The notes below the pieces were generated by a model. That model saw nothing but the letters and a program-made list of their open reading frames with translations. It did not search any database and had not been told where the DNA came from. A stretch of 64,000 nucleotides of DNA from Escherichia coli (GTDB taxonomy: Bacteria; Pseudomonadota; Gammaproteobacteria; Enterobacterales; Enterobacteriaceae), in NCBI RefSeq assembly GCF_013122565.1, contig NZ_CP053258.1. The stretch is one strand, 5' to 3'. A program made the position numbers and the translations under genes. Positions 3,006 through 62,144 of this stretch are shown here, one piece after another (positions within the stretch are counted from its first letter, which is position 1; each line of letters starts with the position of its first letter).

Positions 3006-4394
<1,389 letters not shown>

Positions 4395-4560
4395 TTAAAA
4401 GGTAACATGACAATGCATGATGAATATAACAACATATGATGTTATGTAATGTGGAGGAAGATCACATAATTTCGCACAGGATCGCGCTGTGGCTGATGAA
4501 TGTGGTTATCCAATTGAAATTAAAGTGAAAATATTTTTACGGGTGGGGAGCAAGAAGGAT

Positions 4561-4598
4561 ATAGAAACAAATACGCCCTCGGAAAATCCAGAGGGCGT
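4561..4598 (-). terminator. Intrinsic terminator downstream of yhfL
   Basis: 8-bp stem acgccctc/gagggcgt with 10-nt loop, followed on the minus strand by auuuguuucu. Confidence 0.6.
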
Positions 4599-4638
4599 CA
4601 GGCAATTAAACCGGTGTTAGCCGATTTCTGTCAGAGAC

Positions 4639-4806
4639 TTACTGTGCAGTAGGACCGCAACCGCCAATGATTTTAGAAATAGAAATTGCCGGGTGCAGCA
4701 GGTAGTCGTAAGAGCAGTTCTTATCACGGTTTTCAATATGACCAGTACATGCAGTTAACGTAGCCAGTACCGCACCTACCAGTGCAACTTTAATAAATTT
4801 GTTCAT
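4639..4806 (-). CDS. yhfL: Small lipoprotein YhfL (55 aa)
   Basis: Own translation MNKFIKVALVGAVLATLTACTGHIENRDKNCSYDYLLHPAISISKIIGGCGPTAQ; signal peptide with lipobox LTAC; below ORF-track length cutoff. Confidence 0.8.
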   Translation of the reverse strand: MNKFIKVALVGAVLATLTACTGHIENRDKNCSYDYLLHPAISISKIIGGCGPTAQ

Positions 4807-5020
4807 TTACATTCCCTATGTATTATATATTGATTAATATTCATTGATTGTATGAATATAAGTAGACTGCTCATTAAGAACGATACAGGAATATTTAATC
4901 GGCGTCAGTGAGTGAATGACTTAATTTTGTAAGTCGCTGTAACGGTGAATATAACCCATTAGCAGATAATATTTATTAAGGGGTTATGTTTTTATCTGCT
5001 GAATATATAAAGAGAGTTGT

Positions 5021-5048
5021 AAACGAAAAAGGCCAGAATTCTCTGGCC
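5021..5048 (-). terminator. Intrinsic terminator downstream of cysG
   Basis: Stem ggccag/ctggcc (loop aattctc) followed on the minus strand by uuuuucguuu. Confidence 0.7.
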
Positions 5049-5057
5049 CTGATTAAA

Positions 5058-7256: not shown

Positions 7257-7344
7257 TTGATTATCCTTTAAAAAATAAAAACAAAAAATAAAACAAAAAG
7301 TTTAAAAAATGTCCTGCAATATACCGAAGATTATTACAGGACCA

Positions 7345-7372
7345 TGCAAAAAGGGGAGGCATTGCGCCTCCC
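7345..7372 (-). terminator. Terminator-like hairpin with U-run between nirD and nirC (possible internal attenuator)
   Basis: 7-bp GC-rich stem gggaggc/gcctccc, loop gcaau, followed on the minus strand by cuuuuug and then a roughly 50-nt U-rich tract (7262..7310). Confidence 0.5.
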
Positions 7373-12638: not shown

Positions 12639-12806
12639 GTGAAGAAACTCACCGATAAGCAAAAGTCCCGTCTCTGGGAGCTTCAGCGTAATCGTAATTT
12701 CCAGGCCAGTCGCCGTCTTGAAGGCGTCGAGATGCCTTTAGTCACTCTTACTGCCGCAGAGGCTTTAGCGCGCCTTGAAGCGCTGAGGAGGCACTATGAG
12801 CGATAA
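12639..12806 (+). CDS. yhfG: Small Fic-partner protein YhfG (putative antitoxin-like inhibitor, 55 aa)
   Basis: Own translation from GTG with SD agggagg: [55 protein letters not shown]; 3' end overlaps fic start by 11 nt. Confidence 0.85.
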
Positions 12807-17506: not shown

Positions 17507-18139
17507 TTAACGAGTGCCGTAAACGACGATGGTTTTACCGTGTGCGGAGATCAGGTTCTGATCTTCCAGCATCTTCAGAATGCGTCCCACGGTTTCACGA
17601 GAACAGCCGACAATCTGACCAATTTCCTGACGGGTAATTTTGATTTGCATACCGTCCGGGTGAGTCATAGCGTCTGGTTGTTTTGCCAGGTTCAGCAGAG
17701 TCTGTGCAATACGGCCCGTCACGTCGAGGAACGCCAGGTTGCCCACTTTCTCTGAAGTGACTTGCAGACGACGCGCCATCTGTGCAGACAGACGCATCAG
17801 AATGTCCGGATTTACCTGAATCAATTGGCGAAATTTTTTGTACGAAATTTCAGCCACTTCACAGGCGGTTTTCGCACGTACCCATGCGCTACGTTCCTGG
17901 CCCTCTTCAAACAGGCCCAGTTCGCCAATAAAATCACCCTGATTCAGATAGGAGAGGATCATTTCTTTACCCTCCTCGTCTTTGATCAGCACTGCCACAG
18001 AGCCTTTAACGATGTAGTACAGCGTTTCCGCTTTTTCACCCTGGTGAATAAGCGTGCTCTTGGATGGGTACTTATGAATGTGGCAATGAGACAAGAACCA
18101 TTCGAGAGTCGGGTCTGTTTGCGGTTTGCCAAGCACCAT
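17507..18139 (-). CDS. crp: cAMP receptor protein (global transcriptional regulator)
   Basis: 210-aa ORF-track protein with cNMP-binding domain and C-terminal HTH. Confidence 0.98.
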
Positions 18140-18440
18140 GCGCGGTTATCCTCTGTTATAAGCTTTCTCCAGAGCCAGATAACGCCGCTGTCTCTGGATT
18201 GCCGAAATATGCTTCCCGCTACCTGGGAAGGGGCTATCAACTGTACTGCACGGTAATGTGACGTCCTTTGCATACATGCAGTACATCAATGTATTACTGT
18301 AGCATCCTGACTGTTTTAGCATAGCTTTCGCTTTGTGTCTCCTGGTGTCTCGCTTCAGCATGACCCAGGTCGCCTTCCGTTGCGCGATTTGGTTAGTACG
18401 CGTACTCTGTCAGGAAAATTGACGCAGTGGAGTAGCAAAA

Positions 18441-27692: not shown

Positions 27693-27818
27693 TTACAGGC
27701 CGGATATAATTAGTGCTGGAAAGCGGAACCTCCGCTGTATTAATTTAGTTACCCGCATCATTAATGAGCCTGCCCTGAAAAGTTAACGACAGGCTCCTGA
27801 AAAGGAGTGTTTTTTTTC

Positions 27819-29603: not shown

Positions 29604-30648
<1,045 letters not shown>

Positions 30649-34165: not shown

Positions 34166-34405
34166 CATTTATTGATTGCATATCTTATTTGTAATATCAG
34201 AACGAACAAATCATTCATAATTAAAATATCATATTGAATTGATATTTTAATTATGAATATTTCTGTTTTTAAAATGCTTCATTTATCAGGCTTTTTTCTT
34301 ATTTTTAATGCTGTAATTCAATTCATATTGAAGGGTTCTCGTAAAATGTAAATAATTACTACGTAGGACTTTTGTTTTGTAGTTTTTACGTCACAAGGGA
34401 TTATA

Positions 34406-37099
34406 ATGAAATTAAATATATTTACTAAATCTATGATTGGTATGGGGCTGGTGTGTTCTGCTCTGCCTGCATTTGCTATTGAAGCATGGAATAACCAACA
34501 AGGTGGTAATAAATATCAGGTTATTTTCGATGGCAAAATTTATGAAAATGCCTGGTGGGTTTCTTCTACAAATTGCCCGGGAAAAGCGAAAGCAAATGAT
34601 GCAACTAACCCGTGGCGTTTAAAGCGTACCGCGACAGCTGCTGAAATTAGTCAGTTTGGCAATACACTTTCCTGCGAAAAGAGCGGTAGCTCATCGTCTT
34701 CAACTTCAAATACGCCAGCATCTAATACGCCGGCTAATGGCGGTTCGGCTACACCAGCACAGGGCACTGTTCCGTCTAATTCTTCTGTAGTTGCCTGGAA
34801 TAAACAGCAGGGCGGTCAGACCTGGTATGTCGTCTTTAATGGTGCGGTATATAAAAATGCCTGGTGGGTAGCCTCTTCTAACTGCCCGGGTGATGCGAAA
34901 GGCAATGATGCCAGCAACCCATGGCGTTATGTTCGTGCCGCTACGGCAACGGAAATCTCAGAAACCAGTAATCCACAGTCCTGTACTTCAGCACCACAGC
35001 CTGCACCGGATGTGAAACCGGCACCGGACGTTAAACCGGCTCCTGATGTTCAGCCAGCCCCGGCTGATAAGTCAAACGACAACTATGCTGTCGCAGCCTG
35101 GAAAGGTCAGGAAGGTTCTTCTACATGGTACGTTATCTACAACGGCGGCATTTATAAGAACGCCTGGTGGGTAGGCGCGGCAAATTGCCCAGGCGATGCG
35201 AAAGAAAACGATGCCAGCAACCCATGGCGTTATGTTCGCGCGGCAACGGCAACAGAAATCAGCCAGTATGGTAACCCAGGCTCCTGTTCCGTTAAGCCTG
35301 ATAATAATGGCGGTGCTGTGACTCCGGTTGATCCAACTCCGGAAACTCCGGTTACCCCAACTCCGGATAACAACGAGCCATCAACACCAGCGGATAGCGG
35401 TAACGATTACTCATTGCAAGCGTGGAGCGGCCAGGAAGGTAGCGAAATTTACCATGTTATTTTCAATGGTAATGTTTACAAGAATGCCTGGTGGGTTGGT
35501 TCTAAAGATTGCCCACGGGGTACCAGCGCTGAAAACTCCAATAACCCATGGCGTCTCGTGCGCACAGCTACCGCTGCGGAAATGAGTCAGTATGGTAACC
35601 CGACTACCTGTGAAATTGATAATGGCGGCGTCATTGTTGCGGATGGTTTCCAGGCCAGCAAAGCGTACAGCGCAAACAGCATCGTAGATTATAACGATGC
35701 ACATTATAAAACCTCTGTCGATCAAGACGCATGGGGCTTTGTCCCGGGCGGCGATAACCCGTGGAAGAAATACGAACCGGCGAAAGCATGGTCCGCTTCC
35801 ACCGTGTACTTGAAAGGTGATCGCGTTGTTGTTGATGGGCAGGCTTATGAAGCGCTGTTCTGGACGCAAAGTGACAACCCTGCTCTGGTTGCGAACCAAA
35901 ACGCCACCGGTAGCAATAGCCGCCCGTGGAAGCCGTTAGGTAAGGCTCAGAGCTATAGCAACGAAGAGCTGAATAATGCGCCGCAGTTTAATCCAGAAAC
36001 GCTTTATGCCAGTGATACGCTGATTCGTTTTAACGGTGAGAACTACATTTCTCAGAGTAAAGTGCAGAAAGTTTCCCCTTCTGACAGCAACCCGTGGCGT
36101 GTCTTTGTTGACTGGACCGGAACCAAAGAACGTGTAGGTACGCCGAAGAAAGCGTGGCCGAAACACGTTTATGCACCGTATGTCGACTTTACGCTGAATA
36201 CGATCCCGGATCTGGCTGCGCTGGCTAAGAATCATAACGTCAACCACTTCACGCTGGCGTTTGTGGTGAGTAAAGATGCGAACACCTGTCTGCCGACATG
36301 GGGTACCGCTTACGGTATGCAGAATTACGCTCAGTACAGCAAAATCAAAGCTCTGCGTGAGGCTGGCGGCGATGTGATGCTGTCTATCGGTGGTGCTAAC
36401 AACGCTCCGCTGGCTGCTTCCTGTAAGAACGTAGACGATCTGATGCAGCATTATTATGACATCGTTGATAACCTGAACCTCAAAGTCCTGGACTTCGATA
36501 TCGAAGGCACCTGGGTTGCGGATCAGGCATCTATTGAACGTCGTAACCTTGCTGTGAAGAAAGTGCAGGATAAATGGAAGTCAGAAGGCAAAGATATTGC
36601 TATCTGGTATACCTTGCCAATTCTGCCGACTGGCCTGACGCCGGAAGGGATGAATGTCCTGAGCGATGCCAAAGCGAAAGGTGTTGAGCTGGCGGGTGTG
36701 AACGTGATGACAATGGATTACGGTAACGCGATTTGTCAGTCTGCAAATACCGAAGGTCAGAACATCCACGGTAAGTGTGCTACGTCTGCGATTGCCAGCC
36801 TGCATGCGCAGTTGAAAGGCCTCTACGGCAATAAGAGCGATGCTGAAATTGACGCCATGATGGGTACCACGCCGATGGTTGGCGTGAACGACGTTCAGGG
36901 CGAGGTGTTCTATCTCTCTGATGCTCGTCTGGTCATGCAGGATGCGCAGAAGCGTAATCTCGGTATGGTTGGTATCTGGTCAATCGCGCGCGACCTGCCG
37001 GGCGGCACTAACCTGTCTCCGGAATTCCACGGTCTGACTAAAGAGCAGGCTCCGAAGTACGCATTTAGCGAAATCTTCGCGCCGTTTACTAAGCAATAA
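34406..37099 (+). CDS. chiA: Periplasmic endochitinase/lysozyme-like ChiA (GH18 catalytic domain with four N-terminal chitin-binding repeats)
   Basis: 897-aa ORF-track protein; signal peptide; four repeats of the AW(N/K)xQxGxxxYxVxFNGxxYKNAWWV...NPWR module; GH18 motif LDFDIEG. Confidence 0.95.
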   Translation: MKLNIFTKSMIGMGLVCSALPAFAIEAWNNQQGGNKYQVIFDGKIYENAWWVSSTNCPGKAKANDATNPWRLKRTATAAEISQFGNTLSCEKSGSSSSSTSNTPASNTPANGGSATPAQGTVPSNSSVVAWNKQQGGQTWYVVFNGAVYKNAWWVASSNCPGDAKGNDASNPWRYVRAATATEISETSNPQSCTSAPQPAPDVKPAPDVKPAPDVQPAPADKSNDNYAVAAWKGQEGSSTWYVIYNGGIYKNAWWVGAANCPGDAKENDASNPWRYVRAATATEISQYGNPGSCSVKPDNNGGAVTPVDPTPETPVTPTPDNNEPSTPADSGNDYSLQAWSGQEGSEIYHVIFNGNVYKNAWWVGSKDCPRGTSAENSNNPWRLVRTATAAEMSQYGNPTTCEIDNGGVIVADGFQASKAYSANSIVDYNDAHYKTSVDQDAWGFVPGGDNPWKKYEPAKAWSASTVYLKGDRVVVDGQAYEALFWTQSDNPALVANQNATGSNSRPWKPLGKAQSYSNEELNNAPQFNPETLYASDTLIRFNGENYISQSKVQKVSPSDSNPWRVFVDWTGTKERVGTPKKAWPKHVYAPYVDFTLNTIPDLAALAKNHNVNHFTLAFVVSKDANTCLPTWGTAYGMQNYAQYSKIKALREAGGDVMLSIGGANNAPLAASCKNVDDLMQHYYDIVDNLNLKVLDFDIEGTWVADQASIERRNLAVKKVQDKWKSEGKDIAIWYTLPILPTGLTPEGMNVLSDAKAKGVELAGVNVMTMDYGNAICQSANTEGQNIHGKCATSAIASLHAQLKGLYGNKSDAEIDAMMGTTPMVGVNDVQGEVFYLSDARLVMQDAQKRNLGMVGIWSIARDLPGGTNLSPEFHGLTKEQAPKYAFSEIFAPFTKQ
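35000..35071 (+). repeat. In-frame 18-bp tandem repeat encoding the Pro-rich linker (PAPDVK)x2-PAPDVQ-PAPADK within chiA
   Basis: Four consecutive 18-nt units read from sequence. Confidence 0.8.
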
Positions 37100-37106
37100 A
37101 TGTGTT

Positions 37107-37137
37107 GGCGATACCTTCCGGTATCGCCGCATTTTTT
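37107..37137 (+). terminator. Intrinsic terminator downstream of chiA
   Basis: 9-bp stem ggcgatacc/ggtatcgcc, loop ttcc, followed by gcatttttt. Confidence 0.85.
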
Positions 37138-37140
37138 GTC

Positions 37141-37173
37141 AATGGGCTACTTTTGGTAGCCCATTATTTTTAT
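37141..37173 (+). terminator. Second hairpin with T-run immediately after the chiA terminator (tandem terminator)
   Basis: 10-bp stem aatgggctac/gtagcccatt, loop ttttg, followed by atttttatt. Confidence 0.5.
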
Positions 37174-37267
37174 TCATATTTCTATTTTTTGCTTAAAAAA
37201 GAGTCTTTCCGTAATTGAAATAAGAACTATTTTCATTTATTTTTGAGGAAAGTATACGGGAGTCTCT

Positions 37268-37462
37268 ATGTACGTTTGTCTTTGTAATGGTATCAGCGAT
37301 AAAAAAATTCGTCAGGCTGTGCGCCAGTTTTCCCCCCACTCGTTCCAGCAATTAAAAAAATTTATTCCGGTCGGCAATCAGTGCGGTAAATGTATCCGGG
37401 CCGCGCGTGAAGTGATGGAGGATGAATTAATGCAGTTGCCGGAGTTTAAGGAGTCCGCATAA
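37268..37462 (+). CDS. bfd: Bacterioferritin-associated ferredoxin ([2Fe-2S])
   Basis: 64-aa ORF-track protein with CLC...CGKC cysteine pattern. Confidence 0.93.
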   Translation: MYVCLCNGISDKKIRQAVRQFSPHSFQQLKKFIPVGNQCGKCIRAAREVMEDELMQLPEFKESA

Positions 37463-37533
37463 ACGGAGTGTGTTTTTTGACTTACTCGTAAGCCGTTCTA
37501 CGCTTCAAAGAGTGGAAGCGAAGGAGTCAAAAA

Positions 37534-38010
37534 ATGAAAGGTGATACTAAAGTTATAAATTATCTCAACAAACTGTTGGGAAATGAGCTTGTCGCAATCA
37601 ATCAGTACTTTCTCCATGCCCGGATGTTTAAAAACTGGGGCCTCAAACGTCTCAATGATGTGGAGTATCATGAATCCATTGATGAGATGAAACATGCCGA
37701 TCGTTATATTGAGCGCATTCTTTTTCTGGAAGGTCTTCCAAACTTACAGGACCTGGGCAAACTGAACATTGGTGAAGATGTTGAGGAAATGCTGCGTTCT
37801 GATCTGGCACTTGAGCTGGATGGCGCGAAGAATTTGCGTGAGGCAATTGGTTATGCCGATAGCGTTCATGATTACGTCAGCCGCGATATGATGATAGAAA
37901 TTTTGCGCGATGAAGAAGGCCATATCGACTGGCTGGAAACGGAACTTGATCTGATTCAGAAGATGGGCCTGCAAAATTATCTGCAAGCACAGATCCGCGA
38001 AGAAGGTTGA
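37534..38010 (+). CDS. bfr: Bacterioferritin
   Basis: 158-aa ORF-track protein; SD aaggag. Confidence 0.97.
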
Positions 38011-38017
38011 GCCGTGT

Positions 38018-38037
38018 CGGGAGGGTGAACCCTCCCG
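38018..38037. other. Stem-loop between convergent bfr and gspO, adjacent to the gspO stop
   Basis: 8-bp stem cgggaggg/ccctcccg, loop tgaa; no U-tract on either strand. Confidence 0.45.
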
Positions 38038-38038
38038 G

Positions 38039-38716
38039 TTAATAAGAGATCCAGGCCAGATACCCCAGGTTTATCATGCTGCCGAGCGCAAGCCATGGGC
38101 CGAATGCAATAGTGGTTATAGTCCGGCGTTGCAGAAGTTGTGAAACGATGGCGTAACCAATGCCACCCAGCGAGGCAATCAGCAGTATCATTGGCAACGT
38201 TTGCCAGCCACACCACGCGCCTGCAGCGGCCAGTAGCTTGAAATCACCGTAGCCCAATCCCTCTTTGTGACAAACTAACCAGACGCCCCAGTAAACACAC
38301 CACAGCACCCCATAGCCAGCTACCGCGCCGTAAACCGCATCATGTAGATCAATTAATCCAGACTGCGCATTAAATACTAAGCCAAGCCAGAGCAGCGGTA
38401 AGGTGAGTTTGTCGGGCAGGAGCTGAGTGCGAAAATCAATAACACTGAGCGTGAGTGCGAAACAGAAATAGAGAAAGAGTGCGCCAGTCACTATGGGCGT
38501 GAAAGGTGCCAGGGCGCAGGCGATAGCAGCAGCAACGCAAAGTATCAGGGGCACTGTATCATGCCAGGCATATTTTTTTTGCCTGAAATGAACCAATACC
38601 TGGCGAAACGTTAACGCCGTTTTATCCTCCATAGGCGAGAGGTGATAGGCCATGGCATTAACAAAATAACCTGCAATAAAACCAATCAGAATGAAGAGCG
38701 GCAGTAGCATTGTCAT
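38039..38716 (-). CDS. gspO: Type II secretion prepilin peptidase (A24 family)
   Basis: 225-aa ORF-track polytopic membrane protein with prepilin-peptidase-like regions (VIDFRTQLLPD, GYGDFKL). Confidence 0.9.
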   Translation of the reverse strand: MTMLLPLFILIGFIAGYFVNAMAYHLSPMEDKTALTFRQVLVHFRQKKYAWHDTVPLILCVAAAIACALAPFTPIVTGALFLYFCFALTLSVIDFRTQLLPDKLTLPLLWLGLVFNAQSGLIDLHDAVYGAVAGYGVLWCVYWGVWLVCHKEGLGYGDFKLLAAAGAWCGWQTLPMILLIASLGGIGYAIVSQLLQRRTITTIAFGPWLALGSMINLGYLAWISY

Positions 38717-39177
38717 TATTGTTGCTCCCTGAAGGACAAATGCCTGAGGGTGATCTCTTCGTTTCCGGCAAGAGTAAACTGAAGGTCTTCAATAACAATA
38801 CCGTATGTTATCTGTACCTTAGTGAGCCAGTGGGAGACATTTTCGAGGGGAGCTGTGACAGGATGAATTGTCAGAGTATTGTCCGGGCCGTTTTCCAGCG
38901 TGATAGCCAAATTCTCACGTTTTGCTTCCTCGAGAAGGATATTTTTGATGGGCTGCGTAAGCGCAGGATGACCAAGTAAACCATGGGTGCTCGCTTGATC
39001 CTGCATCCATTTGATGTCCTTCTTAATTTTTTGCGCGTGGGACTGATGCTCTGCAATGTAGGTATCTATCGGTTTTATCACCCCAAGCCAACAAAAAACG
39101 CCGAGCGAGAGAACCGCCAGTGCCGCAACGATCTGTTTTTCCGATGTGGATTTTTCTGCCCACCATGATTTAATCAT
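38716..39177 (-). CDS. gspM: Type II secretion system protein M
   Basis: ORF-track frame 38716..39201; start placed at ATG 39177 (MIKSWW, 153 aa), preceded by AAGGAG and forming ATGA overlap with the gspL stop. Confidence 0.85.
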   Translation of the reverse strand: MIKSWWAEKSTSEKQIVAALAVLSLGVFCWLGVIKPIDTYIAEHQSHAQKIKKDIKWMQDQASTHGLLGHPALTQPIKNILLEEAKRENLAITLENGPDNTLTIHPVTAPLENVSHWLTKVQITYGIVIEDLQFTLAGNEEITLRHLSFREQQ

Positions 39178-40340
39178 TTCCCTGAGCTCCTTACTGTCCA
39201 TACACCACTAAGCGGATCTTTTCCTGTTTTTTCCATCGGAAGCCAGGACTGTGTTAATTCACAGAAACGATCGATATTGGCTTCACTCTTAGCACTCATT
39301 TTTAAGGTCAGCGACTTTTGCTTTTGGCTATAATTCGCTTCCATTAACTGCAGTTCAGGATGTTCCAGTAAGAGCGTTTGCAAATGATGGAGCAACGGCA
39401 CAGCTTCAGGATATTGCTGAGCGAGCTGCTGCTTAAAGTAAAAACGAAAGTTGTGGGTGCGTTTGATCTGCGGGAAATAACGTTGCCAGGTTTCTTGCTG
39501 TTGTTGCTGAAGTTGATCTTCAATCTTAAGCGTTTGCCAGAGCGCGATGCCCCGGCTGCCAACAAAAGAAAGAATGGCGAGAACGAGACAGCTTACTGCC
39601 AGGCGGGCGAGCCATTTTCCCGATTTGCTTACAGTTTTCTGTTTACGAAAAACACCATGCAGCATGTCATAGCGCTGGAATGCAATATCGGCAGAATACA
39701 AACTCAGTGATGGTATTTCAGGATGCTGGATAAGTGGATTGGTCGCTGCAACGCCGTGAGGTGCTACACCATAACAAAGCATATTCTCAGGCGGAAACTG
39801 GGCAGCAAGATGCTGTAACCAGTGTTCATCCAGTTCATTGAAGGCATGTGCGGCACTGCGAATAAGCCAGCTTGTTTGCTGGTTAACCAGAGTCCAGCTA
39901 TCTACTTCCCAGGGAAGATAGCAGCCATCTGGCAAAACCCGCGTCACGTTGAGTCCGGCAGTATGTAAACGCTCAAGATAGCGACTGAGTTTCTCCGACT
40001 GAATGCCTATCACCTCGACACTTTCGTTTTGTTTATCGACAACCGTCCAGTGCCAATTTTGGTTGGCGTCGGGTAATGTCTCCTCCGCCAACCACTGTAA
40101 TGTTTGCGCGGTGAGTTTGTATTTGGCGTTGGGCAGCGTGAGGGAACGATATAACAGACCCTCAGGTGGGATCAAAAGGTGAACATTTCCGGCACCAGGC
40201 TGATCGGCCAGCGACTCCAGCGGAAGATCGTCTGTGAGCGTATGTACCGAAGATACGCTATCTGCGGAGAACGTCATCCATTCCCAATGCTTACGCAGCG
40301 TCGAGGAAGAACGTATTACCATCAACGATTCAGGCATCAC
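39174..40340 (-). CDS. gspL: Type II secretion system protein L
   Basis: 388-aa ORF-track protein (or 387 from the second Met). Confidence 0.88.
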   Translation of the reverse strand: MMPESLMVIRSSSTLRKHWEWMTFSADSVSSVHTLTDDLPLESLADQPGAGNVHLLIPPEGLLYRSLTLPNAKYKLTAQTLQWLAEETLPDANQNWHWTVVDKQNESVEVIGIQSEKLSRYLERLHTAGLNVTRVLPDGCYLPWEVDSWTLVNQQTSWLIRSAAHAFNELDEHWLQHLAAQFPPENMLCYGVAPHGVAATNPLIQHPEIPSLSLYSADIAFQRYDMLHGVFRKQKTVSKSGKWLARLAVSCLVLAILSFVGSRGIALWQTLKIEDQLQQQQQETWQRYFPQIKRTHNFRFYFKQQLAQQYPEAVPLLHHLQTLLLEHPELQLMEANYSQKQKSLTLKMSAKSEANIDRFCELTQSWLPMEKTGKDPLSGVWTVRSSGK

Positions 40341-40351
40341 GATCCTTATGA

Positions 40352-41335
40352 TTAGTAGAGTTGCAGCGTACGCCGATAGATTTGGGCGCTCTGCTGTTTA
40401 CGGTTGAAAAAAATATGGCTTTGCCATCCCTGGGATTGTTCGTCGCTGATACTTTCCGTACTCAGCGTAAAATAGCGGCTATAGGGAAAGAGATGCCCTT
40501 TCACCTGAGCAACCAGGGGCTTCACGCCGGAGAAATCCTGCTGCGCCCAGTAAAGAAATGCTTCCGTGGTTAGCCAGCCTTCCCTCGGCTTTTTTTGTAA
40601 TAAGACCCGAGCGTCAGCATCCGTGATGTTATTGAGGAATAACGCTCTGAAGAGCGGAATATCGTTCTCCGTTAGCATATTAAGATTGATGCTAAGTTCC
40701 TTAGTCGGGAGAACGCAGACATACGGGATAAGCCGCTGATAGATGTTTTCGGTTATGCCTTTTATCTGACGCAATTCACCGGTCAGAAAAAGCATCTGAT
40801 TGGCGCTATGGCGAGGCGGCGTCTGGCTTTGGTAAAAGTTATCTTCTGCGCCGTGAAAGCGTGGCGAATCATCGGCATCAATATAGTCAGCGATTGATTG
40901 CACGAGCTCATCGGTGTTTCCGCGATCGATACCGGCGTTAATCAGCAGCGCACTGAATACCTGGGCGGGGAAATCAGGGGAAGCCAGCGGGTCGTCAGAG
41001 ATTTTTGCTAACGCATTGAGATTAAAACAGTGCTGGGCATCGCGTAACTGCCACTTCACTGTATTGCCATCTTCCAGCTGCAACTGTTGTGGCTGTGCCC
41101 AGTACTGCTGCAACGTGGTCTGTCTGTCGTTATCTTTAACGTCCTGGGTGAGGCTGGCAAGCGCAAGTTTCTCCGCCAGTTCAATATCATATTGCCGTTG
41201 CAAATGATGGTTTACCTGGCGGGTTCGCTGAAGCTGGCTGTGAAAACTGAGCGTCATGTCTGCTGCCAGAGCAGCCATGAGCGCCAGTAACATGAGTACA
41301 ATGAGCAGCGCGACGCCGCGTTGTTCATTATTCAT
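40352..41335 (-). CDS. gspK: Type II secretion minor pseudopilin K
   Basis: 327-aa ORF-track protein with N-terminal hydrophobic segment. Confidence 0.9.
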   Translation of the reverse strand: MNNEQRGVALLIVLMLLALMAALAADMTLSFHSQLQRTRQVNHHLQRQYDIELAEKLALASLTQDVKDNDRQTTLQQYWAQPQQLQLEDGNTVKWQLRDAQHCFNLNALAKISDDPLASPDFPAQVFSALLINAGIDRGNTDELVQSIADYIDADDSPRFHGAEDNFYQSQTPPRHSANQMLFLTGELRQIKGITENIYQRLIPYVCVLPTKELSINLNMLTENDIPLFRALFLNNITDADARVLLQKKPREGWLTTEAFLYWAQQDFSGVKPLVAQVKGHLFPYSRYFTLSTESISDEQSQGWQSHIFFNRKQQSAQIYRRTLQLY

Positions 41336-41915
41336 GGTTATTATTCCCGGCCTGCGTCTGAGCTGGCGACTCTTCTCTCGCTAACTGCTCAGGTAATGCA
41401 AAACGGCGCTGTAACACCCCATATTGCTGAGTCTGCAGATGTAACGTGACTGAGAGAGGAAGTTCCTGGCTTTCCCCGCTGTTACTTTCCATAAGAAAGC
41501 TCTCGACATGTTCCAGCATCGCCTGGGCGGGTTGATCCTTCCTGCCATCCACAGAAGTACGAACAGCACGGTAGAGCGTATGATTTCGTAGATACCAGTG
41601 AACTGTGAGTAAGGTTTGTGCTTCACTGAGAGGAGCCAGCGGATCGCGACTTTGCGTGGTAAAAATAGCTTCTTCACCCAACACCATGATCTTGTCCGTA
41701 CTCCGATTCCTCCGGGCGACCAATTGCAGGAGATCGTTATCAAGAATGGTGATGGTGCGCTGTAGCTGATTGAACTGCTGGATTTCTTTCTGTGAACGTT
41801 GATGCAACTCGGAAGCTTGCGAAAAAATCATAAACGCCAGCACGCTAAGCATTGAGAAAATCGCCAGCGCCGCCATGACCTCCAGCAATGTGAAACCCTG
41901 CTGGCGATTAATCAT
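41328..41915 (-). CDS. gspJ: Type II secretion minor pseudopilin J
   Basis: 195-aa ORF-track protein with prepilin-type N-terminus [10 protein letters not shown]. Confidence 0.9.
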
Positions 41916-42285
41916 CTTGTGCCTGCCCGGATTTATTATCGATGCTTTGATAACGCGTAAGCGAGGTTGTCTGACCGCTGGGTAATGTCACCGTTATGGT
42001 GCGTTCCAGAAGCGTGCCGTCTTTGCTTGAGTGGATATCGCTGCGCCAGTTCCACTCTTCGCCATTTATTAACTCTTTGCCAGAACTGGACGTGTTTTCC
42101 TCGTCGAATGAATCTTGTGACTGAAGCTGGTTATCCGCTATCCACAATGCCAGCGTCTCGTTGCGCATTCGCTCGATGGCATTTCGTTGCCCTTGCATAC
42201 TGCTCATTAAAGTCAGAGCAACAGCGGTGAAAATACTCATCGCCAGTAAGACTTCAAGCAGTGTCATCCCTGATTGTTTGTTCAT
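41908..42285 (-). CDS. gspI: Type II secretion minor pseudopilin I
   Basis: ORF-track frame 41908..42324; start placed at ATG 42285 ([19 protein letters not shown], 125 aa), ATGA overlap with gspH stop. Confidence 0.88.
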
Positions 42286-42791
42286 GGGCGGGTATCTCTG
42301 GCGAGCGTTTGATCCAGGGGCCATGAGCCTGAACAGACTAACGTCAGGAGCGGCTCACCGGTCCCGGCGTTAGCCATCAACAAAGAGAAGGGCGTGATTT
42401 GTCCGTCGGCCAGAATCACCACCTGTGGCTGGTTGCTGTCATCAGGTTTAAATGGCTGAAGATGAATTGAGAGTTCTTCATCCCAGTCATTTTGGCTCTC
42501 GTCTGCGGCATCTTCTTGTAATGGAACCCAGCGCCAGGCTGATGGTGTTTTGCCCGGTACCATAATGCGCCATGCTGAATCAGAGAAATGGATACCGACA
42601 GGCTGACCACTGAGCGTGGCGCGGTCGATGGCTAATTCAAGTGCAGCGGTAAACCGCGCCGCTGTTTCGCGCGCACGAGTGTTGGCGACATCCTCCCGAC
42701 CATATGTGAAGAGCACCACACTTGCCGTGATAGCGACCAGCGCCAGCACCAGCATCATCTCCAGCAGGGTAAACCCGCGTTGCTGATTCAT
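42282..42791 (-). CDS. gspH: Type II secretion minor pseudopilin H
   Basis: 169-aa ORF-track protein with prepilin-type N-terminus [10 protein letters not shown]. Confidence 0.9.
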
Positions 42792-42798
42792 CGCTGAC

Positions 42799-43236
42799 TT
42801 ACTTTTTCTTCTTGCTCAAACCCCAGTTGGTGATGTCGTCCTCGGTTCCCATTTCACCATCGGGCCCTGCTGAAAGCAGATCGTATGCACCATGTTCACC
42901 AGGATTAACGAGGACATAATCATTGCCCCAGGGATCGGCAGGCAGACGCTTGATATAACCTTCCTTGTTATAGTTTGCGGCCAGCGGTGGCAGTGTCGGC
43001 GCTTCGACTAAGGATTCAAGCCCCTGATTTGTGGTTGGATAGCGATGATTGTCGAGTTTGTACATATCAAGGGCGTTTTCCAGCGCCACAATATCGCTGA
43101 CGGCTTTTTGCTTATCCGCCTTTTCTTTATTGCCCATTAGGTTAGGAACCACCAGGCTGGCAAGTACGCCGATAATGACGATCACCACCATAATTTCCAG
43201 TAATGTAAAACCGCGTTGCTTATCCGTTGCGCGCAT
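42799..43236 (-). CDS. gspG: Type II secretion major pseudopilin G
   Basis: 145-aa ORF-track protein, prepilin N-terminus [21 protein letters not shown]. Confidence 0.93.
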   Translation of the reverse strand: MRATDKQRGFTLLEIMVVIVIIGVLASLVVPNLMGNKEKADKQKAVSDIVALENALDMYKLDNHRYPTTNQGLESLVEAPTLPPLAANYNKEGYIKRLPADPWGNDYVLVNPGEHGAYDLLSAGPDGEMGTEDDITNWGLSKKKK

Positions 43237-43245
43237 ATGCTTTCC

Positions 43246-44442
43246 TTAATTAATCAATGAGTTAAGTTGAAGAAGAGGTTGGAGTACCGACACGACAATA
43301 AACAGGACGATCAGTGCCATCGTAATAATGAGTGCTGGCTCGAAGATGGAGAGCGTTAAGGCGATCCGATTTTGTTGGAGTGTCTCTTGGTTATCTGCGG
43401 CTCTGACCATTAATGTGCCGAGCTGCCCGCTTTTTTCGCCAGAGGCCACCATGTAGAGCATCATCGGCGGGAAAATTGCGGTTTGTTCCAGCGAAAGATG
43501 AATGCTGTTACCCTGGCGAACGTTTTCTGCCGCATTTGCCAGACGCTGGCGAATTTCGAGGTTGCTGAGGCTTTCGGTGGACAAATTCATCCCATCCAGC
43601 AGAGGGACGCCGCTGGATTGCAAAATACTTAAAGTGCGGAGATAGCGTGCACTGTTAATGGCGCAAATCAGCGGGCCGATGAGCGCAACGCGCAGCAACA
43701 TGGCATGAAAACGGTGGCGGTTATTGCCGCGTTTTAACCAGAGCCAGAAACCTAAAGCGACAATAAACACTGTCGCTAATAATGTCGGGCCGGTACGTTG
43801 CAACGTGTCGCTCAGACCTAAAAGAATGCGTGTACTCATCGGCAGTTGCTGCTTCATATGCACGAACTGTTCGGTAATTTTGGGCACGACAGCAGTGAGG
43901 AGAATAATCACGACCACAATCGCCACCATAGTGAGCATGCAGGGGTAGATCATTGACTGAATGAGCTTATTGCGTATTTTCTGTCGGTTTTCATTGTAAT
44001 CAGCCAGCTTTTCCAACACCGGGGCCAGCAGCCCGCTTTTTTCGCCCGCTTTAACCAGGGTACGATAGAGCGAATCGAAAAGCGTGGGAAAATGCTGTAA
44101 TGCATCGGAAAGGGGATGCCCTTCAAGGATGGCGCTGCGTACTTGATTCAACACGTAAGCCAGTCGTTTATTACTACTTTGTTGACCAATTACGGCAAGG
44201 CTCTCTTCCAGGGGTAATGCCGCCGCGCTTAAGGTTGCCAACTGCCGGGTGAAAAGCGTCAGTTCACTATGGCTGATCCTCGGGCTACGTGTTTTTACTC
44301 CCGAACTTTTTTGGGGGCGAATATCCAGCAGGAAAAGCCCTTCTTCACGCAGCCGCAGTCGTGCCTGACGTTCATCGTTAGCATCAATGATCCCTTGCAA
44401 TTTTTGACCATCCTGGGTCATGGCGCGATAGCGATAATTCAT
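43246..44442 (-). CDS. gspF: Type II secretion inner-membrane platform protein F
   Basis: 398-aa ORF-track polytopic membrane protein. Confidence 0.93.
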
Positions 44443-45920
44443 GCTTCGCTCTCCAGTGTGGCGCTGGCGACGCGCATAACCTCATCCCAGGAGGTGTCAC
44501 CGTTTATCACTTTTTGCAGGCCATTTTTGATTAAGGCATTGTGTTGTTGCCGGACCAGTCGCTCCAGTGCTTGTTCATCCACATTTTCATGAATAGCGGC
44601 CCGCAATTCCGGCGTCACCACCATCATTTCGTGGATCGCCATGCGCCCCTGATAGCCGGATTGATGGCAATGAGGGCAGCCTACGGGAGTGCCAATTGTT
44701 GTCACCGCGAGCTGATGATATTTAAACATCTGCGCTTGTTGAGGGGATACGGGCGCGAATTGTCGGCATTGCGGACACAGACGACGAACTAGACGTTGCG
44801 CGATAATCCCTGCCAGTGAAGACGAAAGCAGGAATGATTCGACGCCCATGTCGCGGAGCCGGGTCACTGCGCCTGATGCACTGTTAGTGTGGAGTGTTGA
44901 GAGTACCAGATGGCCTGTGAGCGAGGCCTGAACCGCAATTTGCGCGGTTTCTGTATCACGAATTTCCCCCACCATGACGACATCCGGGTCCTGGCGAAGT
45001 ATGGCGCGCAGGCCGCGAGCGAAAGACATATCCACACGGGTATTCACCTGCGTTTGTCCTATGCCTTCCAGTTCATATTCCACGGGATCTTCTACCGTCA
45101 GAATATTGCGGCCGGGAGTATTCAGCGCCGAAAGAATGGCGTAGAGCGTGGTACTTTTACCGGAGCCTGTCGGTCCGGTCACCAGGATAATACCGTGTGG
45201 AAGCTGGATGAGATTTTCTAAATCCTGCTTATCCGCTGCCGTCATCCCCAGGTTGTTCAATGAAAGCTGGAGGCTGTTTTTATCCAGCAGACGGAGCACG
45301 GCACGTTCACCATAGATGGACGGCAGTGTGGATACGCGGACATCTATGTTACGTCGCCCGATACGCAAACTGATTCTTCCATCCTGTGGAATACGTTTTT
45401 CGGCGATATCAAGACGAGCCATGACCTTAATTCGGGAGATAAGCAGTGCCGCCAGTTTTTTGTTTGGCTGTAAAATTGTCCGCAGAACGCCGTCGATGCG
45501 AAAACGGATCGACATTGTTTTTTCATAGGTTTCAATGTGGATATCGGAGGCAGTTTCTTTGATGGCCTCACTCAAAATCGCATTGATCAAGCGGATAACC
45601 GGTGCCGCTGAATCTTCATTCAGGAGATCTTCATTTGCGGGCATCTCTTCCGAAAGCGAGAGAAGATCGACGGATTGATCGATATCCTGCGCAATCTGTT
45701 GCGACTCACCGGTATTCTGATGGAACACCGCTTCCAGCCGGGCTTCAAAATCAGCCTGTGACAAACTGGTCATGGTCTGGCACTGGCCAACCTGACGTTG
45801 AATATCGAGTAACCGCTCGAATGGCGTATCGGCGAGATAAATAATCTCGCCCTCTGAGTAGAGATAACCAATTCGTTGTGCCAGCGCCCAACTGGCTGGG
45901 TACGGTGAGTGAATTCTCAT
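44439..45920 (-). CDS. gspE: Type II secretion ATPase E
   Basis: 493-aa ORF-track protein with Walker [10 protein letters not shown] and C-terminal tetracysteine CPQC...CPHC. Confidence 0.95.
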
Positions 45921-45929
45921 CAGAATGCC

Positions 45930-47894
45930 TTACCGTGACGATGGCGCAGGGGCGTGACTGTTGAACGTGTTCTCATCCAGCACCGGCAAATCTTCCGAGC
46001 CAACCAGCGCTTTTGATTTCCCGTCGATTCGCAGCTGCTGCTCCTGACGGTAGCGGGTGTATTTCTCTTTTGACAGTGAGCGATAAACATCATCGTCACG
46101 GATAATCGTCGGGCGGATAAATACCATCAGGTTGCGTTTAGCGCGCTCGGTCGAGGTATAGCGAAAGAGTTGCCCCACTAAAGGAATATCGCCAAGCAGA
46201 GGAACCTTTGACACTTGCTCTTTAGAAAAATCATCCAGCAATCCGCCCAGGACCACCGTTTCACCGGTTTTAACCAGCACGGCGTTTTGAATAGTACGGG
46301 TGTTAAATGTCGGGCCGAGCGTCGAATTAGACGAAGAGTCAACGCTGGAAACCTCCTGCTCTATTTCGAGCAGTACCGCGTCGCCTTCATTGACCTGCGG
46401 AGTGACTTTGAGTTTTGTGCCCACCGTTTTGCGTTCGACGGTATTAAAGACATTATCCCCAGAAGTGGTCTGAGAGCCGGATAGCACCGGCACATCCTGG
46501 CCAACGTTGAAGGACGCGAGTTTATTATCCAGCGTTACGATGCTCGGGGTGGCGAGGATGTCATTTTTATTGTTACTGGCCAGCGCGGTAAGCAGTACGC
46601 CCCAGTCGCCATTGAAGAAGCCTGCGGCCATGCCGTTGTAGGCGCTAAACATATCCCAGGCAGGATTCGCGCTGGTGATCCCACCATTCTTTTTATAATC
46701 AGCCACACCTTGCGCAGCGTTAAAAATCGGTAATCCGGTATTGGTAAATTGCTGTGCGCCAACGTTTTTATTTGCCCATTGCACGCCGAGGTTGAGTCCA
46801 TTTCCATCCTGAACTTCGACGATGATTGCCTCAACCAGCACCTGTGCACGGCGAATATCCAGACGCGCAATTACCGTGGCGAGTTTTTCCTGGACGGACT
46901 GGTCAGCGGTAATGACCAACGAGTTGGTCTGTTCATCGGCGGTAATAGCCACATTATCCATCGCAGAAGTAGAAGAAGGCTTACGCGAATTCCCTTTTTC
47001 ATCTTTCAGCTTTTCGGAAACACCGGTTAGCACTTCCACCAGATTCGTGGCCTTGGCATATTTCAGGTAATAGACCCGGGTATTTCCTTCCTCGCTCTCT
47101 TCTACATCAAGGCTTTTCAGTAATGAAGTGATGCGCTGGCGTGCTTTTTCCGGCCCGCTGATGATAAGAGAGTTGGTTCGCTTATCCGCCACAATCTTCG
47201 CGGAAAGGAGGGCAGGCATCTGGCTTTTACCGTGGCTTTCGCTGATTAATTGATTAAGAATCTCGGCGAGATCTTCCGCTGACGCATATTCCAGATGAAT
47301 AATTTGCTGCTTCTCTGTGCCGATGACATCAACGCGCTTTATGACTTCAATCAGTTTATTAATGGTGGAGGCACGACCGGTCAGAATAAGAACGTTGGAG
47401 GGTTCATAATGCACAACATTACCGACGCTACCCGCATCCATCATCTGGCGCAGCAGGGGAGCCAGGTCACGAGCAGGAACGTTCTCAAGCGGTACGATTC
47501 GGGTGACCAACTCATCACCTACGCCTGGACGAGAACTGTCAGCAATCATCCCTGGCGATGTTTTTACATTAGCTGAGCGCACCACTTTCAGAAAACCATT
47601 GTCCAGCGTGATCACGGTATAACCGTAAAGATCAAGAATACTTAAAAAGAACTGGTAGTACTCCTGTTGGCTAAACGTATCATTACTGCGTACGGAAATG
47701 GTTCCCTGTACCGAAGGGTCGATCAGGATCGTTTTGCCAAGATGCTGACCCACTATTTCCACGAACTGGCGAATATCGGCGTTATTGAAGTTAGCGCCGT
47801 ATTGTTCGTTCTCAGAGTGCCCTGTACCAGGCATGAGTAGTGCTGCCAGCAAGCAGCAGGTGATTTTATTGAGTCCCTTCATTACGCTGTCCAT
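45930..47894 (-). CDS. gspD: Type II secretion outer-membrane secretin D
   Basis: 654-aa ORF-track protein with signal peptide; first ATG has AGGA 6 nt upstream; alternative start at 47882 gives 650 aa. Confidence 0.92.
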
Positions 47895-48681
47895 TCATTC
47901 CTGTAAGTTCCCCGACGGAAACATTTATCAAACGGGGTACGCCGTTGCGACGAATTGTAAACTGAGCACTTTGTTGAGTTAGCAGTAAACTTAATGCCTG
48001 TGAAACCTCATCAGGGTGGGTCAGCGAAAGATTATTGATCCTGAGGGCGATATCCCCTGGTTGTAGCAAGCTGGTGGTAAATGCATTGAGGCCCTTACGA
48101 GGGTTCAATCGAAGCCCGTATATCTGTTCTCCATCACGTATAGGCGTGGCGATAATATAATCAGCGAGTACATTTTGACTTTCCGAATCAGGCTGCTTGA
48201 TGATGTCAGGTAGCCCTGGATGGAGAGTTACTTTTTCGTAATGCCCGTGAGTTTCAAACACAACGCTGGTTTTATTTATTTTTCTAATAAACGTTCCCGG
48301 CGCTGACTCAAGGGCTTCGTTGAGGGCGTATCGCTTTTGCTCGCCCCCCTCATTAATTAAGACAAAAGAAGTCTCATCATTCGATGTGAGTACAATGCCA
48401 TTAAGCGCTATAGAGAGCTTAGGTGTTTCCTGATTAACTGCCACAGGATTTGCATCTTTTACCCCAGCATGATTTTCGTTACGCCATAAAGCGGCAAGGC
48501 TGAACTCAGACTGAAATGCATTTGTTGGTTGATTAATGATCTGTCCATTTTTAACTATAGTTGTATGGAAATAATTCACATTAAAAATAATCAGCCCTAT
48601 GCTTATAAATATAATCAATATATTGATGGCAGCATCTTTATTATGATTCGCCAGATGGAAGGGGAAACGTAGTGTGGGCAC
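47866..48681 (-). CDS. gspC: Type II secretion system protein C
   Basis: 271-aa ORF-track protein with one N-terminal TM segment; first gene of the gspC-O operon. Confidence 0.9.
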
Positions 48682-48860
48682 GATGTATGTTCTAATAAAA
48701 TAGATTGGGTGGGTTGTATATTGACGTTAGTATAAATAGTATTAATGCCGCTTGCATGAATCAAGCAAAATTTATTTATATTAGTAATATGTATTTAATT
48801 AATAAATGCATACATTATTTTTATGATTAAGGATAATCAATAATTAAAACAGGAAGTTCT

Positions 48861-50330
48861 ATGTCTACGAGAAGAGAAGTTATTCTTGCCTGGTTGCGTG
48901 AGAAACGTCAGACCTGGCGTCTGTGCTATTTGTTGGGTGAGGCTGGAAGTGGAAAAACCTGGCTGGCGCAGCAATTACAAAAAGATAAACATCGCCGTGT
49001 GATTACTTTAAGCCTCGTTGTTTCCTGGCAAGGTAAGGCCGCATGGATCGTTACCGACGATAACGCGGCTGAACAGGGCTGCCGTGACAGCGCCTGGACG
49101 CGAGATGAGATGGCGGGGCAATTACTGCATGCGCTTCATCGAACTGATAGTCGCTGCCCTCTTATTATTATTGAAAATGCTCACCTGAATCACCGCCGGA
49201 TACTTGATGATCTCCAACGCGCGATATCTCTTATTCCTGACGGTCAATTTTTGCTGATCGGCAGACCCGATCGAAAAGTCGAACGTGATTTTAAAAAACA
49301 GGGCATTGAACTTGTCTCGACAGGACGTCTAACGGAGCACGAACTTAAGGCTAGTATCCTTGAAGGTCAGAATATTGACCAACCCGATCTCCTTTTAACC
49401 GCCAGTGTTCTGAAACGAATAGCTTTATTATGTCGGGGCGATCGCAGAAAGCTGGCGCTTGCCGGCGAAACAATTAGCTTATTACAGCAAGCCGAGCAGA
49501 CCAGCGTTTTCACAGCAAAACAATGGCGAATGATTTACCGCATATTGGGTGATAACCGCCCCCGGAAAATGCAGCTTGCCGTGGTAATGAGTGGAACCAT
49601 TATCGCTATTACCTGTGGTTGGCTACTGCTGTCCTCTTTCACAGCTCCGTTCCCCGTTCCTGCGTGGCTGGTACCCGTAACGCCAGTAGTTAAACAAGAT
49701 ATGACTAAGGATATTGCTCATGTGGTGATGCGCGATAGTGAGGCGCTAAGCGTGTTATACGGCGTATGGGGGTACGAGGTCCCAGCTGATTCGGCCTGGT
49801 GCGATCAGGCAGTAAGAGCGGGGCTGGCATGTAAAAGTGGGAATGCTTCTTTACAAACATTGGTAGATCAGAATTTGCCCTGGATCGCATCGCTTAAAGT
49901 CGGGGACAAAAAATTGCCTGTTGTGGTCGTTCGCGTCGGTGAGGCTACCGTTGATGTCCTCGTAGGTCAGCAAACGTGGACGCTGACACATAAATGGTTT
50001 GAGTCGGTATGGACGGGTGATTATCTTCTGTTGTGGAAAATGTCGCCGGAAGGGGAGAGTACCATTACGCGTGATAGCAGCGAGGAAGAGATTCTCTGGC
50101 TGGAAACGATGTTAAACCGTGCATTGCATATTTCGACAGAACCTTCGGCGGAGTGGCGTCCCTTGTTGGTAGAAAAAATAAAGCAATTTCAAAAAAGCCA
50201 CCACTTGAAAACTGACGGTGTTGTTGGCTTTTCAACCTTAGTACATCTCTGGCAGGTGGCAGGGGAGAGTGCCTACTTATATCGGGATGAAGCAAATATT
50301 TCCCCGGAAACAACAGTGAAGGGGAAATGA
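48861..50330 (+). CDS. gspA: Type II secretion accessory protein A (ExeA-like AAA ATPase with periplasmic domain)
   Basis: 489-aa ORF-track protein; Walker A GEAGSGKT; divergent from gspC. Confidence 0.92.
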   Translation: MSTRREVILAWLREKRQTWRLCYLLGEAGSGKTWLAQQLQKDKHRRVITLSLVVSWQGKAAWIVTDDNAAEQGCRDSAWTRDEMAGQLLHALHRTDSRCPLIIIENAHLNHRRILDDLQRAISLIPDGQFLLIGRPDRKVERDFKKQGIELVSTGRLTEHELKASILEGQNIDQPDLLLTASVLKRIALLCRGDRRKLALAGETISLLQQAEQTSVFTAKQWRMIYRILGDNRPRKMQLAVVMSGTIIAITCGWLLLSSFTAPFPVPAWLVPVTPVVKQDMTKDIAHVVMRDSEALSVLYGVWGYEVPADSAWCDQAVRAGLACKSGNASLQTLVDQNLPWIASLKVGDKKLPVVVVRVGEATVDVLVGQQTWTLTHKWFESVWTGDYLLLWKMSPEGESTITRDSSEEEILWLETMLNRALHISTEPSAEWRPLLVEKIKQFQKSHHLKTDGVVGFSTLVHLWQVAGESAYLYRDEANISPETTVKGK

Positions 50331-50331
50331 C

Positions 50332-50751
50332 ATGTTTGAATTCTATATCGCCGCGCGTGAGCAGAAAGAAACAGGTCACCCTGGTATCTTCTCCCGACAA
50401 AAACACAGCACCATAATATATGTCATTTGTTTATTACTGATTTGCCTGTGGTTTGCAGGAATGGTGCTGGTTGGTGGGTATGCCAGGCAGCTATGGGTGC
50501 TTTGGATAGTAAAAGCAGAAGTCACTGTAGAGGCTGAAACGCCCGCTTTTAAACAATCAACACAACACTATTTCTTCAAAAAACAGCCACTCCCCGTCGT
50601 CGAATCCGTCGAGGAGGAAGATGATCCAGGCGTCGCGGTTGAGAATGCCCCCTCTTCTTCTGAAGACGAAGAAAATACTGTGGAAGAAAGCGACGAGAAA
50701 GCCGGTTTAAGAGAGCGTGTTAAAAATGCGCTGAACGAACTTGAGAGATAA
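50332..50751 (+). CDS. gspB: Type II secretion accessory protein B (ExeB-like)
   Basis: 139-aa ORF-track protein with single TM segment and acidic C-terminus. Confidence 0.88.
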   Translation: MFEFYIAAREQKETGHPGIFSRQKHSTIIYVICLLLICLWFAGMVLVGGYARQLWVLWIVKAEVTVEAETPAFKQSTQHYFFKKQPLPVVESVEEEDDPGVAVENAPSSSEDEENTVEESDEKAGLRERVKNALNELER

Positions 50752-50783
50752 CCCGAAGGCTGTTTACTTTACTAGCAATACGC

Positions 50784-50811
50784 TTGCGTTCGGTGGTTAA
50801 GTATGTATAAT
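50784..50811 (+). promoter_or_regulatory. S10 operon promoter (-35 TTGCGT, 16-bp spacer, -10 TATAAT)
   Basis: Hexamers at 50784..50789 and 50806..50811; predicted transcript start about 170 nt upstream of rpsJ. Confidence 0.7.
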
Positions 50812-57707: not shown

Positions 57708-59015
<1,308 letters not shown>

Positions 59016-59020
59016 GGTAG

Positions 59021-60154
<1,134 letters not shown>

Positions 60155-60161
60155 GTAGCAG

Positions 60162-61641
<1,480 letters not shown>

Positions 61642-61659
61642 TTTTTTCGCATATTTTTC

Positions 61660-61688
61660 TTGCAAAGTTGGGTTGAGCTGGCTAGATT
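61660..61688 (+). promoter_or_regulatory. Candidate alpha-operon promoter (-35 TTGCAA, 17-bp spacer, -10 TAGATT)
   Basis: Hexamers at 61660..61665 and 61683..61688, about 100 bp upstream of rpsM. Confidence 0.55.
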
Positions 61689-61778
61689 AGCCAGCCAATC
61701 TTTTGTATGTCTGTGCGTTTCCATTTGAGTATCCTGAAAACGGGCTTTTCAGCATGGAACGTACATATTAAATAGTAG

Positions 61779-62144
<366 letters not shown>

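Follow-up and report, generated by a model that had tools for sequence, protein, structure and literature searches.

Does the short reading frame in the spacer between cysG and frlA encode a protein, and which other genuine genes lie hidden with it below the length cutoff of an ordinary ORF listing? The preliminary description had named three such genes—yhfL, rpmD (L30), and rpmJ (L36)—and had argued for them from their ribosome-binding sites and from the way they fit between their neighbours. We analysed the whole 64,000-nt stretch of DNA, hereafter called the window, in comparison with Escherichia coli K-12 MG1655 and with the RefSeq annotation of strain TB06051. The entire window is collinear with the reverse complement of MG1655 at approximately 3,440,260–3,504,250, with an identity of 98.5–98.8%, and 79 of the 81 K-12 CDSs mapped onto it are intact; the remaining two are rpsG, with an early stop, and rpoA, which runs past the end of the window.

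The three reading frames are almost certainly ordinary E. coli genes that have already been annotated and are too short to pass an arbitrary display threshold of 60 codons. The coordinates and lengths first given for them (55 codons for yhfL, 59 aa for rpmD, and 38 aa for rpmJ) proved exact, and none of the three is listed at the default cutoff of 60 aa. All three identities were borne out, as each gene is a RefSeq CDS at the syntenic position in both TB06051 and MG1655, and the homology search of the three translations returned matches to curated family models far above threshold in every case. The strand of yhfL had been omitted, and it is the minus strand: the minus-strand translation is MNKFIKVALVGAVLATLTACTGHIENRDKNCSYDYLLHPAISISKIIGGCGPTAQ, while reading this span on the plus strand gives a meaningless sequence interrupted by a stop. 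The initial observation is right in substance and ordinary, with no novelty and no new biology. The coordinates of the features discussed here are collected in Table 1.

Table 1. Short genes of the window, with their signals, the overlying antisense reading frames, and an RNA element
Feature	Coordinates	Strand	Evidence or remark
yhfL CDS, 55-aa prolipoprotein, DUF4223/YhfL family	4639..4806	-	ATG ORF, PF13978, RefSeq
yhfL predicted signal peptide MNKFIKVALVGAVLATLTA, codons 1-19	4750..4806	-	
yhfL lipobox Cys20 codon	4747..4749	-	
YhfL predicted mature part, 36 aa	4642..4749	-	
yhfL SD-like AGGGA, 6 nt upstream of ATG	4813..4817	-	duplex -5.9 kcal/mol
Terminator-like hairpin ACGCCCUC...GAGGGCGU with U-rich tail, ~40 nt past yhfL stop	4563..4598	-	predicted
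Terminator-like hairpin just past cysG stop	5029..5050	-	consensus scan: 9-bp stem, then TTTCGTTT; predicted
yhfG, 55 aa, GTG start	12639..12806	+	PF10832, RefSeq, PDB match
yrfJ, 17 aa	14074..14127	+	annotated b4820 'protein YrfJ', NC_000913.3
rpmD, uL30, 59 aa, spc operon	59537..59716	+	TIGR01308, PF00327, RefSeq
Antisense ORF, 208 aa, over rpsE/rpmD	59012..59638	-	
rpmJ, bL36, 38 aa, last spc operon gene	61525..61641	+	TIGR01022, PF00444, RefSeq
Antisense ORF, 116 aa, over secY/rpmJ	61374..61724	-	
Alpha-operon leader / S4-binding element	61709..61820	+	Rfam RF00140, 102.7 bits vs 38

What kind of protein does yhfL encode? The product matches the DUF4223 profile PF13978 with 129.2 bits (cutoff, 27; E = 5e-38), and its residues 1–54 align with positions 1–54 of the 54-position profile. 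The protein is identical to that of E. coli K-12 (b3369), in which the gene likewise lies between cysG and frlA and differs by one synonymous nucleotide, and the 801-bp yhfL region was matched in 5425 of 5426 complete E. coli genomes. A database search returned 269 homologues across Enterobacterales, in hosts that include Salmonella, Citrobacter, Cronobacter, Serratia, Erwinia, Hafnia, Edwardsiella, and Xenorhabdus. In a genus-level alignment of 20 sequences, 22 of the 55 columns are invariant, including C20, C31, and C50, and an alignment of 66 sequences keeps this core; YhfL from the window carries all of the invariant columns of both alignments. The family core C-S-Y-D-Y-L-L-H-P...S-x-S-K-x-I-G-G-C-G and the two cysteines outside the lipobox are likewise present in it, and it agrees with the cysteine pattern 0/11/30 found in 96 of 120 homologues.

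The N-terminus of YhfL consists of a basic n-region (MNKFIK), a hydrophobic h-region (VALVGAVLAT), and a lipobox (LTA followed by the Cys). The lipobox consensus [LVI][ASTVI][GAS]C is present in 119 of the 120 homologues, and its Cys is invariant. The residues at positions +2 and +3 of YhfL are Thr and Gly, respectively; of the 120 homologues, 117 have Thr at position +2, two have Ser there, and none has Asp, while 117 have Gly at position +3. Bacterial lipoproteins mature through the Lgt/LspA/Lnt pathway, and the +2 rule for Lol sorting in E. coli states that a protein without Asp at position +2 is released to the outer membrane. With these features in mind, we propose the following course for YhfL. 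First, the precursor would be exported by the Sec machinery. Second, a diacylglyceryl group would be transferred to Cys20 within the lipobox L-T-A-C, signal peptidase II would cleave the precursor, and N-acylation would follow. Finally, since the +2/+3 residues are Thr-Gly and not Asp, Lol-dependent transfer would place the protein in the inner leaflet of the outer membrane. The expected product would be a triacylated, 36-residue, lipid-anchored periplasmic peptide, and a Cys31–Cys50 disulfide probably staples this mature form.

A different fate after export can also be envisaged, in which YhfL is cleaved by signal peptidase I to give a soluble or secreted peptide, or is retained in the inner membrane. 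We consider this quite unlikely, since the lipobox is retained in all but one of the 120 homologues with its Cys invariant, and since Thr or Ser at position +2, with Asp never found there, predicts the outer membrane under the E. coli rule. The current curated names, "DUF4223 domain-containing lipoprotein YhfL" and "outer membrane lipoprotein", also speak against it, whereas an older product name, "conserved secreted peptide" (quoted in PMC5493296), and the mature length of just 36 residues are the points in its favour.

For the preferred reading of YhfL as an outer-membrane lipoprotein, the open literature searched contained no direct evidence of translation, lipidation, or outer-membrane location, no report of globomycin sensitivity or palmitate labelling, and no functional study of the E. 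coli protein. Most literature matches to "yhfL" concern an unrelated Bacillus acyl-CoA ligase, and the gene of E. coli or Salmonella turns up in tables of promoter-SELEX results, in lists from transcriptome studies, and in one screen whose phenotype was not confirmed. In a Salmonella CRISPRi screen, two spacers pointed to yhfL in a single assay, but in that assay a deletion mutant was without a phenotype (PMC12070745). A search of the PDB with the YhfL sequence returned nothing, even at E = 10, and NCBIfam contains no YhfL model. The AlphaFold2 prediction, based on the 66-sequence alignment, has a mean pLDDT of 62.5 and a pTM of 0.32, and its mature part is of low confidence (approximately 50–60). 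Other very small lipoproteins act as partners or regulators of outer-membrane or periplasmic machines. By analogy, the nearly invariant peptide of YhfL (C-S-Y-D-Y-L-L-H-P-A-I-S-I-S-K-I-I-G-G-C-G) could conceivably be a dedicated partner or regulator of such a machine, an assignment that we regard as doubtful and offer as a tentative suggestion.

Is yhfL truly coding? We applied a Nei–Gojobori substitution test to the window yhfL in comparison with the homologous DNA from Salmonella, Serratia, Xenorhabdus, and Erwinia. The synonymous differences are near saturation (pS, 0.53–0.87), the nonsynonymous differences are few (pN, 0.13–0.22), and dN/dS is 0.04–0.17 where it is computable. The differences concentrate at the third codon positions, as in the example of 10/6/22 over the three positions. 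The neighbours of yhfL are all different in these four genera. Its neighbourhood is not conserved between genera, so the gene context gives no functional clue; the different neighbourhood in each genome also indicates that yhfL is an autonomous unit kept by selection, and not the by-product of a spacer. By this substitution pattern, yhfL is truly coding.

The opposite reading takes yhfL as a chance frame in the long, AT-rich regulatory spacer that separates cysG from the frl operon, with an annotation inherited by homology transfer. The gene fills just 24% of this spacer and has a moderate Shine–Dalgarno (SD) sequence, the yhfL/frlA intergenic region is itself a regulatory target under selection, hit in parallel during the adaptive evolution of E. 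coli in the mouse gut (bioRxiv 10.64898/2026.05.27.728231), and no direct proteomic or Ribo-seq record of yhfL is found among the supplement rows listed. The same holds for yhfG and yrfJ, which like yhfL have no entries among the listed rows of the Ribo-seq supplement tables, and this is not evidence of absence. Such a frame should nevertheless not give a protein that is conserved across genera over saturated synonymous sites, with the lipobox and three cysteines kept in almost all of the 120 homologues, and persistence in the wholly different contexts of four genera is impossible for a spacer artefact. The dN/dS values and the conservation among the homologues thus appear to have effectively refuted this reading, to which we give hardly any credence.

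As a coding gene, yhfL also looks like a stand-alone unit. The spacer 4344..5057 is 714 bp long, of which the gene takes up 168 bp, leaving 251 bp before its start and 295 bp after its stop. On the upstream side, the hairpin just past the cysG stop is a predicted terminator that separates the nirBDC–cysG unit from yhfL. On the downstream side, the minus-strand RNA of 4560..4640, which spans the second terminator-like hairpin, folds with a minimum free energy of -25.5 kcal/mol (z = -2.97). With predicted terminators on both flanks, transcription of yhfL looks monocistronic. Binding sites for the sigma-70 and sigma-S holoenzymes were located in the cysG–yhfL spacer by genomic SELEX in vitro (PMC3946193; PMC5493296). 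The SD-like AGGGA of yhfL has counterparts in the Salmonella, Serratia, and Erwinia homologues, where AAGGA or AAGGG lies at a similar distance from the start.

Three further observations concern this spacer. A start-stop element, ATG-TAA, lies in frame between the SD and the yhfL ATG (4807..4812, minus strand) and is the same in K-12 and TB06051; its ATG is probably unused, because the SD is only 0–1 nt away. A sigma-70-like promoter with an extended -10 element, aimed at frlA, lies at 4450..4423 within the yhfL–frlA spacer 4344..4638. For frlA, the ORF tool chooses an ATG farther upstream, at 4394, which gives 462 aa as compared to the annotated 445 aa.

How firmly are the two ribosomal protein genes established? 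The rpmD gene lies between rpsE (ending at 59533) and rplO (starting at 59720), 3 nt away from each, and occupies 180 of the 186 bp available. Its SD, GGGGA at 59525..59529, is located inside the end of rpsE. The product scores 96.3 bits against the TIGR01308 equivalog model (cutoff, 44.65), and it is a full-length match to the 59-aa L30 chains in 390 PDB entries. The DNA is 100% identical to that of K-12 rpmD (b3302, uL30), and the operon position between rpsE and rplO is shared, without any difference. The rpmJ gene begins 31 nt past secY (ending at 61493) and is followed by 146 nt before rpsM; its SD is GGAG at 61514..61517. The product scores 75.6 bits against the type-A equivalog model TIGR01022 (cutoff, 22.7), as compared to 45.7 bits against the type-B model NF002021, which is below its cutoff of 70. 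The CCCH zinc ligands of bL36 (C11/C14/C27/H33) are present in the translation, consistent with K-12 bL36 of the zinc-binding type A (rpmJ, b3299), to which the DNA is 100% identical and which likewise follows secY, again without any difference. The product matches the 38-aa L36 chains in 571 PDB entries, and rpmJ is listed among the "previously known sORFs" in a Ribo-seq supplement (PMC10746267). The presence of these chains in 390 and 571 solved structures proves the L30 and L36 proteins physically. Both genes are translated from the polycistronic mRNA of the spc operon. Most of the remaining gap after rpmJ is accounted for by the alpha-operon leader, the match to which extends into rpsM.

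At a length of 60 aa or more, the spans of rpmD and rpmJ show no ORF other than the two antisense ones (208 and 116 aa). The idea that these are the true features there has virtually no chance and is refuted for practical purposes, as the products of the sense strand match both the curated equivalog models and the ribosome chains of solved structures, neither antisense ORF reaches a Pfam threshold (one has a chance sub-threshold match of 17.1 bits vs 27), and neither is annotated in TB06051 or MG1655; both are spurious. Their presence makes the phrase "otherwise unexplained gaps" in the preliminary description imprecise, since at 60 aa the spans of rpmD and rpmJ are overlaid by them.

The ribosome-binding sites and the fit into the gaps, which had been put forward for all three genes, fare unevenly. 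We measured the strength of the SD as the energy of the duplex with the anti-SD, and judged it against the 81 annotated starts in the window (median, -6.4 kcal/mol) and random positions (median, -2.2 kcal/mol). The description of the sites as clear holds only in part: the site of rpmJ has -7.0 kcal/mol, and those of yhfL (-5.9 kcal/mol) and rpmD (-5.5 kcal/mol) are weaker than that of the median real start, with energies that are equalled by 6–8% of random positions. The latter two sites are real but moderate. The tight fit holds for rpmD on both sides and for rpmJ on the secY side only, and it does not hold for yhfL in its far larger spacer. The ribosome-binding site and the fit are not what establishes these genes.

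The insufficiency of these two properties is illustrated by a scan of the gaps for ORFs that start with ATG or GTG, have 10–59 codons, and carry an SD of -5.5 kcal/mol or stronger. The scan recovered the four genuine genes of 20 aa or more together with a handful of others. The best decoy by fit and SD is a 33-codon ORF on the minus strand at 7261..7362, which begins 19 nt past nirD, ends 4 nt short of nirC, and is preceded by what looks like an SD of -10.3 kcal/mol. We rejected it as a hairpin artefact. The apparent SD, GGGAGGC, is the 5′ arm of the terminator-like hairpin GGGAGGC-GCAAT-GCCTCCC. A T-run comes after this hairpin, whose loop contains the ATG. In a sample of four further E. coli strains chosen across the identity range, the frame is broken by +1 frameshifts in two and carries a 24-nt expansion of a TTTTTA repeat in one, while nirD and nirC are intact in all four. 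The ORF has no Pfam match. It thus has both a strong apparent ribosome-binding site and a tight fit and is noncoding, which indicates that the two together are insufficient.

Two other frames from the gaps can be noted. The 58-codon ORF at 18146..18322 on the minus strand has an SD of -6.4 kcal/mol, ends 6 nt before the crp ATG, and has no family match; it overlaps the antisense RNA AsCRP annotated in K-12, which maps to approximately 18028..18306 on the plus strand. This ORF is probably a chance ORF. The 22-codon ORF at 27693..27761 on the minus strand also has no family match.

Three hidden genes is an incomplete count, since the curated annotation of MG1655 lists five CDSs shorter than 60 aa for this span; yhfG and yrfJ, both intact in the window, had been overlooked. 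The yhfG gene lies just upstream of fic, overlaps its start (12796) by 11 nt, and encodes the small partner of Fic. Its SD, GGGAGG, is the strongest of the five short genes, at -11.1 kcal/mol. The product scores 86.3 bits against PF10832 (cutoff, 22.6) and matches the YhfG chain of PDB 5jff and 5jfz, in which it is the partner of Fic; it differs from K-12 YhfG in two residues (E48A and S51R). The yrfJ gene begins 5 nt ahead of the argD ATG and uses a different reading frame from argD. Its sequence shows 100% identity to the K-12 counterpart, its SD is weak (-3.9 kcal/mol), and its 17 aa are fewer than even the 20-aa floor of the ORF tool. Annotation is the sole backing for yrfJ as a gene, and the literature searched yielded no relevant "yrfJ" paper.

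The value of these results is a methodological caution only. A fixed cutoff of 60 codons conceals at least five annotated genes in 64 kb, two of which encode universally conserved ribosomal proteins, and in their place the 60-aa track displays long antisense decoys. The opposite error is equally easy to make, as the gap-fitting ORF next to nirC, with its seemingly strong SD, is no gene. Homology and the substitution pattern, and not the fit or the ribosome-binding site, tell small real genes apart from chance ORFs.

Finally, the comparison bears on the origin of the window, which is a segment of a non-K-12 E. coli chromosome. The rpsG gene for ribosomal protein S7 (30178..30648, plus strand) stops after 156 codons, as in TB06051, while the K-12 gene has 179 codons; this difference sets the window apart from K-12. 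The closest genome at yhfL is TB06051, with 99.6% identity, and no complete genome in the collection reaches at least 99% identity across the tested regions, except for one strain at the yhfL locus. TB06051 lacks chiA and the gspC-O/gspAB block that are present in the window, where the locus spans 34167..50804 as compared to 34167..35698 in TB06051, and the bfd–bfr segment of TB06051 is only 79% identical to that of the window. The missing chiA and gsp block and the divergent bfd–bfr segment suggest that the tufA–rpsJ interval is a mosaic or recombined region.
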